From IMG/VR virus record IMGVR_UViG_2695420380_000014, positions 1-4,073 of that record: 4,073 nt of DNA; one strand, given 5' to 3'. This document shows positions 1,448-3,903 of the stretch, piece by piece (the stretch's first letter is position 1; each line of letters opens with the position of its first letter). The translations under genes were made by a program, and so were the position numbers. This DNA is from a virus. Taxonomy: Duplodnaviria > Heunggongvirae > Uroviricota > Caudoviricetes. The notes under the pieces were generated by a model. It did no database searches. It was not told where the DNA came from and saw only the letters and a program-made list of their open reading frames with translations.

Positions 1448-2336
1448 ATTTTGCACAGGAGTCGCTGAAAAATACGCGTTAATCGAACAATGGCGACAAC
1501 AATTTCCCATTGAAGCGATGTGTCAGGTATTTGGTGTATCCAGGAGCGGTTATTACAACTGGGTACAGCATGAACCCTCAGACAGAAAACAAAGTGATGA
1601 GCGGCTAAAACTGGAGATTAAGGTGGCACATATCCGCACTCGCGAAACATATGGAACCCGGCGGCTCCAGACGGAGCTGGCAGAGAATGGCATCATCGTT
1701 GGTCGTGACCGACTGGCACGTCTTCGTAAGGAGCTAAGGCTACGCTGTAAGCAGAAACGCAAGTTCAGAGCGACTACGAACTCGAACCACAATCTGCCAG
1801 TTGCGCCAAATCTGCTGAACCAGACGTTCGCTCCTACAGCACCAAATCAGGTCTGGGTGGCGGACCTGACGTATGTTGCCACACAGGAGGGATGGTTGTA
1901 CCTCGCTGGCATCAAAGATGTTTATACGTGCGAAATTGTCGGCTACGCCATGGGAGAGCGCATGACAAAAGAGCTGACAGGTAAAGCCCTGTTTATGGCG
2001 CTCAGGAGCCAGCGCCCACCTGCCGGGCTAATCCACCACTCTGATCGAGGTTCACAGTACTGCGCATACGATTACCGGGTCATACAGGAGCAGTCTGGTC
2101 TGAAAACATCAATGTCGCGTAAAGGTAACTGTTACGACAACGCTCCGATGGAAAGCTTCTGGGGAACGCTGAAAAATGAGAGCCTGAGCCACTATCGTTT
2201 TAATAACCGGGATGAAGCCATCTCAGTAATACGGGAATACATTGAGATTTTCTACAATCGTCAGCGTCGTCACTCTCGTCTGGGGAATATCTCCCCGGCA
2301 GCCTTCAGGGAAAAATATCATCAGATGGCTGCTTAA
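1448..2336 (+). pseudogene. IS3-family transposase OrfB (DDE integrase catalytic domain), 5'-truncated, lacking orfA and the frameshift window
   Basis: Translation from 1448 (...AEKYALIEQWRQQFPIEAMCQVFGVSRSGYYNW...) parallels the N-terminus of IS3 InsF as recalled ([32 protein letters not shown]). DDE motifs are visible: VWVADLTY, HSDRGSQY, ESFWGTLKNE. The only in-window start for this frame is a TTG at 1434, which lies inside the IS1 IRR. Stop TAA at 2334-2336. Confidence 0.85.
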
Positions 2337-2379
2337 AAAAAGAACAAATGGTAGTGTCCGCTATTGCCAGTACACCTCA
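1448..2379 (+). mobile_element. IS3-family insertion sequence remnant (right part only: orfB plus right end); left end and orfA replaced by IS1
   Basis: Begins immediately after the IS1 IRR. Encodes an rve-type DDE transposase frame. After the orfB stop there are about 40 bp ending in ...CCTCA (2375-2379), consistent with the CA-3' terminus typical of IS3-family ends. The exact right boundary (2377-2381) is uncertain. No IS3-type left end or orfA is present in the window. Confidence 0.8.
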
Positions 2380-2917
2380 AAAGTAATTGTTCCACAGTCA
2401 TATTTTTAATTGCGCCCCGGTTAACAAGAGTCCATCCCTGTTTTTCCAGATAAAACCGGAAAGTCTCCAGGGTACAGACCAGTGCGCCATCAGGAACGGT
2501 TTCGGTGAATTCGACATTGCCGAATTTGTCGAAGTGAACAACCAGAGTGCGACCATCACCCGGAATCATCTTGTCAGCAGGTGGGGTGTTATTCTGGCGC
2601 AGTTCGGCCTCCATGCGGTCGAACTCAGCAATGTAGGCTTCTTTGAATGCAGCGGCTTTTTTGCCAGTGAAGCCCATAACCAGGAAAACGAAGCCGTTTT
2701 TGGTGATTTGGTACATTGGGAGTTTGCGCCCGATTGAGTCGGTGTATTCGCTCGCTTCAAAATTGAGGGCAGTAAATTTATCTGAGCATTCAATATTTGC
2801 GATGGCACGTAACACATTGTCGTGTCGTTTGTGGAAGAACTCTGCAACCGCAACAGACGTAGTGACAGCGCGACCGTTTTCTACGGTTACACAAGGGTGA
2901 GAAAGGGTAGTAGCCAT
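2333..2917 (-). CDS. Rha-family phage regulatory protein (Phage_pRha-like N-terminal domain), with its native C-terminal 4 residues replaced by a 15-residue tail read from the IS3-family end
   Basis: ATG 2915-2917 preceded by GGAGG with about 8-nt spacing. The N-terminal region ...CVTVENGRAVTTSVAVAEFFHKRHDNVLRAIANI... carries the FxKRHDNVLR motif I associate with Rha-family regulators. The frame runs into the IS end (...MTVEQLL|LRCTGNSGHYHLFFF*). The frame is also open upstream to ATG 3211 (see findings). Confidence 0.75.
   Translation of the reverse strand: MATTLSHPCVTVENGRAVTTSVAVAEFFHKRHDNVLRAIANIECSDKFTALNFEASEYTDSIGRKLPMYQITKNGFVFLVMGFTGKKAAAFKEAYIAEFDRMEAELRQNNTPPADKMIPGDGRTLVVHFDKFGNVEFTETVPDGALVCTLETFRFYLEKQGWTLVNRGAIKNMTVEQLLLRCTGNSGHYHLFFF
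2382..2462. repeat. 81-bp direct repeat, copy 2 (abuts IS3-family right end; part of the Rha-like CDS)
   Basis: Identical to 599-679 except one base (2443 t versus 660 c). Confidence 0.9.
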
Positions 2918-3081
2918 GATGGCAGCCTCCGCGATGAATTTGATTAACTCACCACCGGAGGTAGCAATCTCATGGGTGGTGAGACGTACAGGGTTGCTAC
3001 AACCGGTCATCACGGAACCCGGCCAGTCTTGCGACTGCCCCGCACGCCCCACCATAATTTGAATGTGGCTGTGCATTACGC

Positions 3082-3106
3082 ATAAAAAAACCGCCTGAGC
3101 GCGGTT
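3082..3106 (-). terminator. Intrinsic terminator-like hairpin on the minus strand, upstream of the Rha start
   Basis: Minus-strand sequence aaccgc-gctcag-gcggtt (6-bp stem, 6-nt loop) followed by seven T (plus-strand A-run 3084-3090). It lies inside the stop-free region between ATG 3211 and ATG 2917. Confidence 0.5.
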
Positions 3107-3275
3107 ATGCGCCGTGAATGACTTCGGGGTAGCAATCCCGGCACCCGTTTTATGAGGTGCAGGTGCACTATAATTCCACCCGTTCTGGTTTTCAATAGCT
3201 ACATTCAACATTTTCTCTTTCCTTTCATCACCGAAGTGAACTTTGTTGATGCGGTGCCTGGTGCCTCCAGGTGAC

Positions 3276-3296
3276 GTTAACCAGTTAACAATTAAC
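3276..3296. promoter_or_regulatory. Cluster of three (G)TTAAC motifs; candidate operator or protein-binding site in the divergent intergenic region
   Basis: GTTAAC-ca-GTTAAC-aa-TTAAC, with repeats starting at 3276, 3284 and 3292. Each GTTAAC is self-palindromic. It lies between the minus-strand Rha region and the plus-strand small gene. Confidence 0.3.
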
Positions 3297-3612
3297 GCCG
3301 GAATAAGGGATTTTCCTTACTGTTTTAACTGTTCCGCGTGCGCTGAGCCGCATTCACCGCATCACAAAATTCACTTTAAAAAGGGCGGACATCAGCCAGC
3401 AATTAAACCGATGCCGCCAACTGGTACTTCACACAGCAATGTCGTTATTTACAACCGGAGGCGCACTCCCACCATTTAAATTTAACAGACAAGACCGACT
3501 CTTTATGGATACCGGAAATGCGCCTTCGTGTTGTGCCCGGTTTTATTTCACCACCTCCGGGCTTTGGTGGTATCTTTACTGAAGTTCTCACACAACCAGT
3601 AAGGAAATGAAT

Positions 3613-3903
3613 ATGCCAACGTATCTCGCCAGAGTAGAACTATATAATGCTGAGCCAGAGGATTACGAAGGGCTTCATAAATATATGCTCTCACTAGGAT
3701 TCAGGAGAACGATCCCCCATGGAGATGGTTCGTATAATCAACTCCCGGACGGAACTTATGTTTCCGAAAAGGGCGGTGATATTTATCAAATTCGCAGCCA
3801 GATATCTGACTATGCAGACCGACTATCCAGGTATCGCGCGTCTGTTTTTGTTTGCGAATTCAGTCAATGCGCATGGTATTTATACCCCGCCAAGACCCGG
3901 TGA
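3613..3903 (+). CDS. Small hypothetical protein (96 aa), tentatively GhoS/DUF2622-like
   Basis: AAGGA at 3601-3605, 7 nt before ATG 3613 (the ATG at 3607 is too close to the SD). Translation MPTYLARVELYNAEPEDYEGLHKYMLSLGFRRTIPHGDGSYNQLPDGTYV... shows by eye a residue pattern (TY...Y....L...M....F...I....G...QL) resembling E. coli GhoS as I recall it. This is a memory-based resemblance only. Stop TGA 3901-3903. Confidence 0.5.
   Translation: MPTYLARVELYNAEPEDYEGLHKYMLSLGFRRTIPHGDGSYNQLPDGTYVSEKGGDIYQIRSQISDYADRLSRYRASVFVCEFSQCAWYLYPAKTR

Follow-up and report, generated by a model that had tools for sequence, protein, structure and literature searches.

The closest described systems are those of P4, P1/P7 and Gifsy-1. 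According to PMC10111431, the Bro-network gene eta of P4 contains both CI and seqA, and translation of eta prevents termination. IsrK corresponds to seqA, and C4 to CI (PMC3632133). In P1/P7, the immI operon has the order c4 antisense RNA, icd and ant1/ant2; c4-icd-ant of P1 is treated in PMC8198154. The Gifsy-1 locus of Salmonella comprises IsrK, orf45 (STnc1160) and anrP (Hershko-Shalev et al. 2016, PMC4825925). There, the first AUG of orf45 is nt 107 of the IsrK transcript, and cis pairing between IsrK and C4 was proven by compensatory mutations (PMC4825925). The sign of the control differs among these models: C4/CI represses in P1 and P4, while IsrK activates in Gifsy-1. An RNA of the isrK family would be expected to be a stable sRNA of ca 77 nt that binds Hfq, and a C4 antisense RNA to be freed from a longer transcript by processing (RNase P). 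Expression of IsrK has been shown only in Salmonella (PMC2330248).

In the window, that is, the whole stretch of DNA that was analysed (4,073 nucleotides), region 3224-2915 of the minus strand very probably carries an RNA immunity module of the P4/P1/Gifsy-1 type, located before a gene of the Rha family (Bro-network, antirepressor-like). Judged from its sequence, the leader belongs to a known system, and its open frame is the counterpart of the nested eta and kil frames of P4. The elements are listed below from 5' to 3'.

3220-3224, minus strand: AAGGA, SD-like, 8 nt 5' of ATG 3211.
3209-3211, minus strand: start ATG of the long eta-like ORF, upstream of the internal promoter.
3167-3195, minus strand: sigma-70-like promoter TTGAAA-17 nt-TATAGT (P_isrK, counterpart of P4 PLE), with 10 of 12 consensus matches.
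3084-3160, minus strand: IsrK/seqA-type sRNA, 77 nt (Rfam RF01394).
3084-3106, minus strand: Rho-independent terminator of IsrK, with a 6-bp stem, a 6-nt loop and U7 (terminator scan and fold).
3060-3083, minus strand: spacer between IsrK and C4, with an in-frame AUG at 3076 (sequence and alignment).
2972-3059, minus strand: C4/CI-type antisense RNA, 88 nt (Rfam RF01695).
2957-2967, minus strand: b2 target UUGCUAC (2967-2961), then CCUCC (2961-2957) (complementarity and fold).
2926-2936, minus strand: a2 target CAUCGCGGA (2936-2928), overlapping the SD GGAGG (2930-2926) (complementarity).
2333-2917, minus strand: rha, short form, 194 codons as it stands (TIGR02681 and PF09669).

The first RNA matches the isrK model over its full length (positions 1-77 of 77) with 64.8 bits, for a gathering score of 50. 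Its transcription start is predicted at ca 3160, downstream of the promoter-like sequence. In a nine-way alignment, in which the window is compared with P4, Gifsy-1 and six further loci, three positions of the -10 hexamer (T, A and the final T) never vary. The RNA is composed of hairpin 1 (3160-3141), hairpin 2 (3140-3125), whose loop holds the b1 sequence UUGCUAC (3135-3129), and the terminator, with a remnant of a1 at ca 3121-3112 between hairpin 2 and the terminator. The minimum-energy fold (z = -2.0) contains the 5' hairpins and the terminator, and compensatory changes are observed in 10 of the 15 consensus pairs (24 sequences). A preliminary description of this leader had noticed a hairpin followed by seven U on the minus strand and had suggested, among other options, that it could end a short RNA. 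The hairpin (AACCGC-GCUCAG-GCGGUU, then the U run) is recovered by the terminator scan at 3106-3084 and folds with -9.2 kcal/mol (z = -2.3). It coincides with the 3' hairpin of the isrK covariance model and closes the predicted 77-nt sRNA, in agreement with that suggestion.

The second RNA, at 3059-2972, was missed in the preliminary description, as was the internal promoter (3195-3167). The match with the C4 model is also full-length (positions 1-87 of 87) and reaches 79 bits, for a gathering score of 45. The RNA folds with -44.5 kcal/mol (z = -4.2), a long closing stem surrounding two hairpins, and 14 of the 25 consensus pairs display compensatory changes (31 sequences). The loop of hairpin 2, UCCGUGAUG (3016-3008), forms the a' element, and the single-stranded GUAGCAA (3000-2994) the b' element. 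Folding of the whole leader (z = -5.0) reproduces the cis pairing of IsrK with C4. Both ncRNAs are already annotated at the homologous place in the GenBank phage record F039. In the Rfam scan of the leader, only isrK and C4 exceed their thresholds; c4-a1b1, STnc100 and DicF remain below. A riboswitch or another Rfam family in the leader was discarded on this basis. A tRNA/tmRNA scan of the window returned no genes.

The two recognition elements of C4 have complementary sites on both sides of the RNA. b2 is the perfect complement of b', and the b'-b1 and b'-b2 pairings both extend over 7 of 7 positions. The CCUCC sequence that follows b2 pairs with the SD of rha in the predicted fold. a' pairs with a2 at 9 of 9 positions, including one G-U. 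The a'-a2 duplex has an energy of -20.4 kcal/mol, matched by only 4 of 500 loop shuffles, and the b'-b1 duplex one of -15.9 kcal/mol, reached by 13 of 500. Taken alone, the energies of the b'-b2 and a'-isrK duplexes are unremarkable as compared to shuffled sequences (75/500 and 69/500, respectively). a1 is partly degenerate in the window, where 6 contiguous pairs are left at the expected site versus 8 of 9 in relatives. We then surveyed complementarity in 99 unique modules, representing 45 distinct (a',b') combinations. For about 25 different a' loops, a 9/9 complement is located at the SD position (+57 to +65) and isrK contains an 8/9 complement; b' has 6-7/7 complements at b1 and b2. Among related loci, the elements and their targets change together over about 25 specificity types. 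When the window is compared with its nearest relatives, changes in the paired sites are compensated. The many co-varying a'/b' types look like immunity specificities.

These pairings bear on how the leader would act. The preliminary description had proposed that the terminator is an attenuator controlling Rha expression. The terminator, the short RNA and a control of Rha are retained in our interpretation; in place of a classical attenuator, antisense pairing in cis and in trans is predicted. A purely cis-acting attenuator, in which translation of the leader ORF would switch the terminator at 3106-3084 with no trans-acting RNA, is hardly credible. Such a device would fit a terminator located within an open frame, 3' of a start codon, and in P4 translation of the leader does suppress termination (PMC10111431). 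However, on the transcript predicted from the local promoter (start 3160), the terminator comes before any start codon, as ATG 3211 is located 5' of the -35 box (3195). Moreover, the leader encodes no short peptide with regulatory codons, and no in-frame stop precedes rha. A full C4-type RNA in the region, with loops that fit two distinct pairs of targets and co-vary with them, also argues against a purely cis-acting device. Finally, the trans action of IsrK in Gifsy-1 and of C4/CI in P1 and P4 is proven (PMC4825925, PMC8198154, PMC3632133).

The isrK and C4 families are found in the same order and spacing in P4 (seqA, cI) and in Gifsy-1, where C4 is located inside orf45. In the nine-way alignment, the -10 box, isrK, C4, b2, a2 and the SD-ATG form the conserved blocks. 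The PLE-seqA-cI-seqC-kil region of P4 shows the same succession as the window: -10 box, isrK/seqA, spacer, C4/CI, b2/a2 (seqC) and GGAGGCTGCCATCATGGCTAC. In both cases, a long in-frame ORF begins 5' of the internal promoter, covers all RNA elements and encodes Phage_ASH, and a short gene begins at the conserved SD-ATG. In P4, eta (197 codons, ATG 8761 of the record) and kil (65 codons, ATG 8365) share one frame over the seqA-cI-seqC stretch, and the N-terminus of Eta matches PF10554 with 82.4 bits. Several differences are also observed. The downstream product is a 65-aa Kil/Icd-like peptide in P4 and a Rha domain in the window. The spacer between the terminator and C4 is 110 nt long in P4, as compared to 28 nt in the window, and b' is AUUCUCA instead of GUAGCAA. 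P4 is a satellite phage, whereas the window derives from a lambdoid Rac/Qin-like prophage. Finally, eta overlaps the stop of orf88, which provides translational coupling; coupling to an upstream gene is also present in SfV, ST64B, mEp460, phiP27 and L006. In contrast, ATG 3211 has no upstream partner and relies on its own AAGGA alone: the ORF list of the window contains no ORF ending at 3211, hence no coupling of the P4 eta type.

Gifsy-1 is a lambdoid prophage, as is the source of the window. In both, a 77-nt IsrK is equipped with a promoter and a terminator of its own, a C4-like RNA follows 24-25 nt 3' of IsrK, an AUG stands at the 5' edge of C4, and a Bro-network antirepressor-like gene begins 54 nt after C4. 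In the window, this AUG is at 3055, in frame, at nt 106 from the predicted IsrK start, and is the counterpart of the first orf45 AUG. In addition, the predicted pairing of the middle part of IsrK with C4 in cis corresponds to the experimentally proven helix b-I. Gifsy-1 differs from the window by 4 nt within C4. The main difference concerns the reading frames. The orf45 of Gifsy-1 is a uORF of its own, 45 codons long and in a different frame; its stop shares nucleotides with the anrP AUG (AUGA), and immediately upstream the frame is closed. The corresponding 46 codons of the window, from AUG 3055, continue in frame into rha, and the frame also extends upstream through IsrK. A separate uORF across C4 with its stop at the gene start is therefore not found here; there is no stop before rha. 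The downstream protein is ORF6N in Gifsy-1 instead of Rha, and the upstream neighbour is antQ instead of a DicF-like RNA.

The likeness with immI of P1/P7 resides in the design: a C4 RNA is co-transcribed with its own target, its a' and b' elements have targets upstream (a1/b1) and downstream (a2/b2, covering the ribosome-binding site of the next ORF), and the controlled product is an antirepressor-type protein. The window matches the C4 family of Rfam and, weakly, c4-a1b1. In contrast with P1/P7, no separate icd ORF is found between C4 and the antirepressor-like gene of the window, and P1 Ant belongs to a different protein family. In the P1-like RCS47, the frame is closed 18 nt 5' of the SD-ATG, so that there is no long ORF.

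As the preliminary description stated, the rha frame remains open upstream of ATG 2917 for 98 codons (294 nt, 2918-3211, minus strand), with no in-frame stop; the other two frames contain 6 and 7 stops. Reading of the sequence also confirms the SD-like AAGGA (3224-3220), 8 nt upstream of ATG 3211, and the GGAGG (2930-2926) ahead of ATG 2917. The resulting long ORF (2333-3211, minus strand) starts at ATG 3211 and has 292 codons for a protein of 292 aa. Its counterpart in E. coli FDAARGOS_944 is annotated by PGAP as the Rha CDS. Among species-representative genomes, the nearest are those of S. flexneri SFBU1023 and E. coli ECMA0423, with ca 90% identity over the rha-leader region. The AAGGA-ATG context, GATGAAAGGAAAGAGAAAATG, is kept 294 nt 5' of the SD-ATG in S. 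flexneri and E. coli relatives.

The preliminary description had left room for a chance open frame. In one sequence, a 98-codon open frame has a probability of ca 0.01-0.03. Among 27 distinct homologous modules from enteric bacteria, the same frame is free of stops in 24, despite four different lengths. The isrK +1 and the C4 AUG are 106, 145, 151 or 190 nt apart, all equal to 1 modulo 3, and a further 138 or 135 nt separate the C4 AUG from the ATG of the gene. Each of the other two frames has 0-6 stops. Because the frame is open in 24/27 modules of four lengths, chance is not a sufficient explanation. Moreover, the extension matches Pfam PF10554 (Phage_ASH) with 63.5 bits, well above the gathering score of 26, over residues 14-104 of the long ORF (window 3172-2900), and corresponds to eta of P4. 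The idea of a chance ORF was abandoned in view of the conservation of the frame across the length classes.

If the frame is conserved, one may ask whether the 292-codon ORF is simply the gene, encoding a two-domain Ash-Rha protein from ATG 3211, the hairpin and the RNA matches being incidental. The openness of the frame in 24 of 27 enteric relatives in spite of the length variants, the PF10554 score, the AAGGA at the proper distance (8 nt) and the annotation of the long ORF by PGAP/RefSeq and in several phage records would all agree with such a protein. However, the extension lacks amino-acid-level constraint. Its pN/pS ratio is 0.93 in the part from C4 to the ATG and 1.17 in the isrK part, versus 0.35 for the Rha domain, which served as a positive control for the pN/pS and codon-position tests in all three frames. 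The ratios of the extension are no lower than those of the off-frames, apart from one off-frame per test (0.77 and 0.66). Over codon positions 1, 2 and 3, the extension has 30/36/31 variable columns, with no third-position excess, as compared to 55/52/101 for the Rha domain at the same loci. The preliminary description had named a synonymous bias across homologs as the sign of a long protein; the extension does not show this bias. A conserved protein extension was rejected from these two measures in three frames. Other observations also argue against the two-domain protein: covariation is seen in the RNA stems and at the intermolecular sites, the ORF contains a promoter-like site, the homology shared with 225 phage records begins exactly at the isrK +1 and not at ATG 3211, and the most conserved block is the SD-ATG at 2917. 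Finally, Gifsy-1, F039 and the P1-like RCS47 have kept the RNAs with a broken frame. Altogether, we consider the two-domain protein very unlikely. Since the frame is maintained across lengths but shows no synonymous bias, it appears to be kept for being translated and not for its product.

The start of rha can be examined in the same light. The preliminary description favoured ATG 2917, partly because the Rha-type domain begins only after this Met. The domain indeed begins 8 residues downstream, as judged from TIGR02681 (114.8 bits, residues 8-109 of the short form) and PF09669 (108.6 bits, residues 117-201 of the long ORF). The choice is reinforced by the alignment of related loci, in which the SD-ATG at 2917 is the most conserved block. 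The GGAGGCTGCCATCATGGCTAC sequence found there is common to P4 kil and dozens of loci, and the C4 loop targets its SD. ATG 2917 is thus the predicted start under RNA control. ATG 3211 is located upstream of the internal promoter, so that the long form could be made only from transcripts that begin further upstream, as is the case for P4 eta.

By analogy with the experiments on P4, P1 and Gifsy-1, most transcripts would halt at the terminator and yield the 77-nt IsrK. Transcripts that read through would remain silent for rha, C4 being paired with a2/b2 and the SD either in cis, as in 'structure A' of Gifsy-1, or in trans after its processing. Such untranslated RNA would then be prone to premature termination. 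Two routes can be envisaged to switch rha on. In the first one, free IsrK, as in Gifsy-1, would either act as a competitor for C4 or change the folding of the leader. In the second one, ribosomes would translate through the leader. Only transcripts that come from the upstream DicF-like/dicB-type operon would include ATG 3211. Ribosomes that initiate at this codon, or at the orf45-like AUG 3055, would unfold the terminator, C4 and the SD hairpin. Expression would become insensitive to the RNA immunity, and an N-terminally extended Rha would be produced. Selection would act on the act of translation, not on the peptide. We tentatively propose, as a possibility that we rate below even chances, that in lambdoid and P4-like enteric elements the frame over IsrK-C4 is a 'translate-through' switch with a neutral peptide, by which ribosomes from ATG 3211 override the RNA immunity. 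The long frame is absent from several homologs that are functional or probably so, namely Gifsy-1, the P1-like RCS47 and two Oslovirus Stx2 phages, F039 and Stx2a_131990.

Along the minus strand, the DicF-like RNA is followed by isrK, C4, rha, the IS elements and dicB. In view of this order, operon transcripts would have to cross the leader. The operon is broken between rha and dicB by IS1 and a truncated IS3-family element, and the 3' end of rha is altered by an IS insertion at ca 2381. The module may be out of use in this prophage damaged by IS elements. A stronger version of this idea is that the module is an inactive relic, recognisable but no longer functional in a decaying prophage, with an open frame that was inherited and is not currently selected. 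Besides the IS elements and the altered end of rha, the degenerate a1 and the DicF-like RNA, whose score of 28.6 bits is below the Rfam threshold of 48, would be expected of a relic. These signs of decay have to be set against isrK and C4 that are full-length and above threshold, against a2, b1 and b2 sites that are fully complementary, including changes compensated with respect to the closest relatives, and against intact promoter hexamers, terminator, SD and almost the whole rha ORF. An inactive relic thus seems most unlikely, and we favour the reading of the leader as an immunity module of the P4/P1/Gifsy-1 type. A literature search for expression data on an IsrK-C4-rha module in Shigella or O157 gave nothing specific.

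The locus brings nothing categorically new; the modest gain is quantitative evidence of an open frame without selection on its peptide. It adds one specificity combination, a' CCGUGAUGA with b' GUAGCAA. For annotation, the 'N-terminal domain' (Phage_ASH) of many Rha, Ant and Bro-type proteins would correspond to translated regulatory RNA genes, two of them, and the functional, RNA-controlled start would be the downstream SD-ATG. If the translate-through switch is true, the Phage_ASH family of Pfam is the shadow of RNA genes and not a protein domain, and derepression of the prophage would override the RNA immunity, leading to the expression of an extended Rha and of the downstream dicB. More generally, a module of this type would decide whether the antirepressor-like protein is made, and would thereby govern the induction of the prophage or the restraint of a superinfecting relative.

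The window was searched against Rfam with the curated thresholds applied. Just two matches passed them, both located on the minus strand in the leader of rha. These are isrK and, downstream of it, C4 antisense RNA, each matched over the full model. A sigma-70-like site precedes isrK. The recognition elements of C4 (a' and b'), their sites in isrK (a1 and b1) and those just upstream of rha (a2 and b2) are included in the following list.

Features of the rha leader
3224-3220, minus: AAGGA, 8 nt ahead of ATG 3211
3195-3167, minus: sigma-70-like site TTGAAA-17-TATAGT; predicted start about 7 nt downstream, at isrK +1
3160-3084, minus: isrK (RF01394), full model, 64.8 bits for a threshold of 50
3135-3129, minus: b1, UUGCUAC, in the isrK hairpin-2 loop
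about 3121-3112, minus: a1, partial, 6 contiguous pairs left
3106-3084, minus: terminator hairpin AACCGC/GCGGUU with a 6-nt loop and U7, from the terminator scan
3059-2972, minus: C4 antisense RNA (RF01695), full model, 79 bits for a threshold of 45
3016-3008, minus: a', UCCGUGAUG, C4 hairpin-2 loop
3000-2994, minus: b', GUAGCAA, single-stranded
2967-2961, minus: b2, UUGCUAC, just 3' of C4
2936-2928, minus: a2, CAUCGCGGA, covering GGAGG 2930-2926

The elements reported in the preliminary description were all recovered at their positions. The minus-strand ORF runs from ATG 3211 to 2333 (292 aa). Its extension 5' of the GGAGG-preceded ATG 2917 measures 294 nt, or 98 codons, with no in-frame stop (the remaining two frames have 6 and 7), and the Rha domain starts downstream of Met 2917. 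The terminator hairpin has a predicted energy of -9.2 kcal/mol (z = -2.3). With its U-run, it forms the 3' end of the isrK match, in agreement with the short terminated RNA suggested earlier. The second RNA and the internal promoter had been overlooked, and the open frame underrated.

Both RNAs are supported by structure. C4 folds at -44.5 kcal/mol (z = -4.2 against shuffled sequences) and the whole 261-nt leader reaches z = -5.0. Relatives were gathered without regard to reading frame, by scanning viral contigs for a C4-core pattern, which gave 119 loci. On distinct sequences, 14 of the 25 C4 pairs and 10 of the 15 isrK pairs carried double changes that RNAalifold counts as compensatory. Homology to phages (225 records) spans about 3160 to about 2905, that is, the RNA module and the SD-ATG, and stops short of ATG 3211. 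At the homologous position, the GenBank record of Stx2 phage F039 carries the annotations "isrK Hfq binding RNA" and "C4 antisense RNA".

Two experimentally studied elements, satellite phage P4 and the Salmonella prophage Gifsy-1, also have both Rfam families, arranged in this order. The P4 counterparts of isrK and C4 are seqA and the CI immunity RNA; Gifsy-1 has, downstream of its isrK gene, a C4 match within orf45/STnc1160. IsrK and C4 are described as structural homologues of seqA and CI, respectively (PMC3632133, PMC4825925). In an alignment of nine sequences (the window, P4, Gifsy-1 and six loci of metagenomic or viral origin), the conserved blocks are the -10 box, isrK, C4, the downstream target region and GGAGGCTGCCATCATGGCTAC, which contains the SD and start codon. 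The downstream domain differs (Rha in the window, ORF6N in Gifsy-1, Kil/Icd-like in P4), consistent with the domain swapping described for the "Bro network" (PMC10111431).

The most informative result at the RNA level is intermolecular covariation. The a' loop is a 9/9 complement of a2, at a fixed distance downstream (+57 to +65), and a2 overlaps the Shine-Dalgarno of the next gene in related loci. The same loop is an 8/9 complement of a1, directly ahead of the isrK terminator. Element b', 3' of hairpin 2, is a 6-7/7 complement of both b1 and b2, the latter immediately 3' of C4. These complementarities hold over about 25 a' and about 10 b' sequences. In the window, the a'-a2 duplex is predicted at -20.4 kcal/mol, a value equalled by 4 of 500 shuffles. 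The guess of a control element for rha in the preliminary description was correct.

The closest relatives compared (S. flexneri SFBU1023, E. coli ECMA0423, E. coli FDAARGOS_944, Stx2a_131990 and L003, the closest viral relative) have the b' of the window but other a' loops, each with a matching a2. Thus, a' and b' act as separable specificity determinants. The b' GUAGCAA is common to the window, L003, an Stx2a phage and the relatives in S. flexneri and E. coli, which between them have three different a' loops with fitting a2 sites. The two elements reassort among related loci. About 25 a' types and no fewer than 10 b' types are present in 99 modules, which suggests that RNA immunity specificities are numerous. 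In the predicted whole-leader fold, b1 and a1 of IsrK pair in cis with b' and a' of C4, and the SD GGAGG pairs with CCUCC 2961-2957. This cis pairing is "structure A", proven by compensatory mutations in Gifsy-1 (PMC4825925).

The open frame also has a counterpart in P4. Residues 14-104 (window 3172-2900) match Pfam PF10554, Phage_ASH (63.5 bits), as does the N-terminus of P4 Eta (82 bits). Frame analysis of P4 gives a kil of 65 codons from the conserved SD-ATG and, in the same frame, an eta of 197 codons, which has its start ahead of the PLE promoter and covers seqA, cI and seqC. From the shared domain and these nested genes, the 98 codons of the window are the counterpart of the Eta-specific part, and ATG 2917, the start rightly favoured earlier, is that of the kil start. 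The leader has the defining, testable features of isrK, of C4 and of an eta-type nested Phage_ASH frame.

The chance open frame considered earlier is not supported. The frame is stop-free in 24 of 27 distinct enteric-type modules despite their differing lengths, and the remaining two frames contain 0-6 stops. An AUG at the C4 5' edge lies 106, 145, 151 or 190 nt from isrK +1, always 1 mod 3, and from this AUG to the gene ATG there are 138 or 135 nt. In SfV, ST64B, mEp460, phiP27 and locus L006, the long ORF and the stop codon of the preceding gene overlap, like eta and orf88 in P4; in the window, the long ORF is not translationally coupled to an upstream gene. The frame is shifted by an indel between C4 and the gene ATG in loci L004 and L115. 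It is closed just upstream of isrK (Stx2a_131990) or inside it (F039) in Oslovirus Stx2 phages and 18 nt ahead of the ATG in P1-like RCS47, and is not kept in most non-enteric modules. The RNA complementarities are retained in all these frame-broken cases and in Gifsy-1, where orf45 forms a uORF of its own, 45 codons long and in a different frame; in the window, the uORF is fused in frame to rha rather than terminated at the gene AUG. Public start annotations conflict: the long ORF is used by RefSeq/PGAP and in ST64B sb41, SfV orf37, mEp460 gp41 and phiP27 L16, whereas the F039 record annotates two ncRNAs and a short CDS.

Substitution patterns in the related loci (pN/pS in the frame named, then in the other two; variable columns by codon position)
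C4 to ATG, 46 codons: Ash frame 0.93; others 0.91, 0.77; columns 30/36/31
isrK part, 19 codons: Ash frame 1.17; others 1.09, 0.66; columns 15/15/13
Rha domain, same loci: in frame 0.35; others 1.22, 1.34; columns 55/52/101

By these sequence comparisons, the extension peptide is free of selection. The synonymous-biased conservation of a long protein, which the preliminary description had set against its own reading, is absent because pN/pS (0.93-1.17) reveals no selection on the peptide. This agrees with the remark of the Gifsy-1 authors that orf45 is conserved in nucleotide sequence and variable in amino-acid sequence (PMC4825925).

Two RNA genes with their structures, a promoter-like site, a terminator, a maintained frame, complementarities including SD occlusion and an ATG (3211) upstream of the promoter are all present in the sequence. 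The steps of the proposed mechanism were inferred from P4, P1 and Gifsy-1. Transcripts from the isrK promoter would mostly end at 3084, giving IsrK. Read-through RNA would bear C4, with rha kept translationally silent by the SD hairpin and by pairing of a' with a2 and of b' with b2. Free IsrK may compete for C4 or remodel the leader. Ribosomes that enter upstream would melt the terminator, C4 and the SD hairpin, and expression would escape RNA control. Their entry point could be AUG 3055, which is in frame and orf45-like, or ATG 3211 if the transcript originates farther upstream. In P4, full-length Eta is made only from an upstream late promoter, and termination is suppressed when it is translated (PMC10111431). 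The C4 antisense RNA of P1 keeps icd/ant from being expressed (PMC8198154); the leader described here has no icd ORF. Repression is the effect of C4-type RNA in P1 and P4, and activation that of IsrK in Gifsy-1. The class of classical leader-peptide attenuators was rejected for this leader.

The operon context fits this scheme. The minus-strand order is DicF-like RNA (3433-3383), isrK, C4, rha, two IS elements and full-length dicB (572-384), so operon transcripts would have to cross the leader to reach dicB. DicB, a cell-division inhibitor (PF05358, 130 bits, model 1-62 of 62), and a DUF1482 protein (196-441, minus) lie downstream of rha on its strand, past the IS block. This places rha and its RNA leader within a dicF-dicB type operon of a Rac/Qin-like prophage. 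The DicF-like RNA has a terminator-like hairpin of its own (3415-3388) and, at 28.6 bits, stays below the Rfam threshold, which is 48. In L003, a bona fide DicF (61.1 bits) occupies the corresponding position. The copy in the window, with a different 5' and central part, seems to be a diverged variant. Between it and ATG 3211, a weak STnc100 match (3242-3371, minus; 33.7 bits, threshold 47) may represent a structured spacer that is conserved in these operons.

In the IS block, IS1 (about 681-1448, InsA and InsB domains) abuts a 5'-truncated IS3-family fragment (about 1448-2381, HTH_21 and rve domains) that is 99.6% identical to S. flexneri copies. The flanks, 599-680 and 2382-2463, are an 82-nt direct repeat (99% identical) of the rha 3' end. 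Consequently, rha ends in 15 other codons in place of its last 4 (KIHC in relatives). The length of the repeat, far beyond that of a target-site duplication, suggests that two IS-bearing copies recombined. A divergently oriented 98-aa ORF (3607-3903, plus) has weak similarity to the YmfI family of phage proteins (NCBIfam NF051477, 52.8 bits, cutoff 140) and no Pfam match. At the left edge of the window (about 40-70, plus), the inverted repeat GCCTGCACAGTGTGCAGGC followed by a T-rich run, noticed by reading the sequence alone, looks like an intrinsic terminator.

The finding is genuine and has biological meaning, but it belongs to a system already described and curated, of which the locus is an uncharacterised member with its own a'/b' combination. 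Over the related loci (L001-L119 and L122-L131), PF10554 coincides with translated isrK, C4 and the a2/b2 sites, with pN/pS of about 1. From these patterns, the frame appears to be conserved for being translated and not for its peptide product. This evidence is the sole forward-looking point; if true, the Pfam family Phage_ASH would largely be a shadow of RNA genes.
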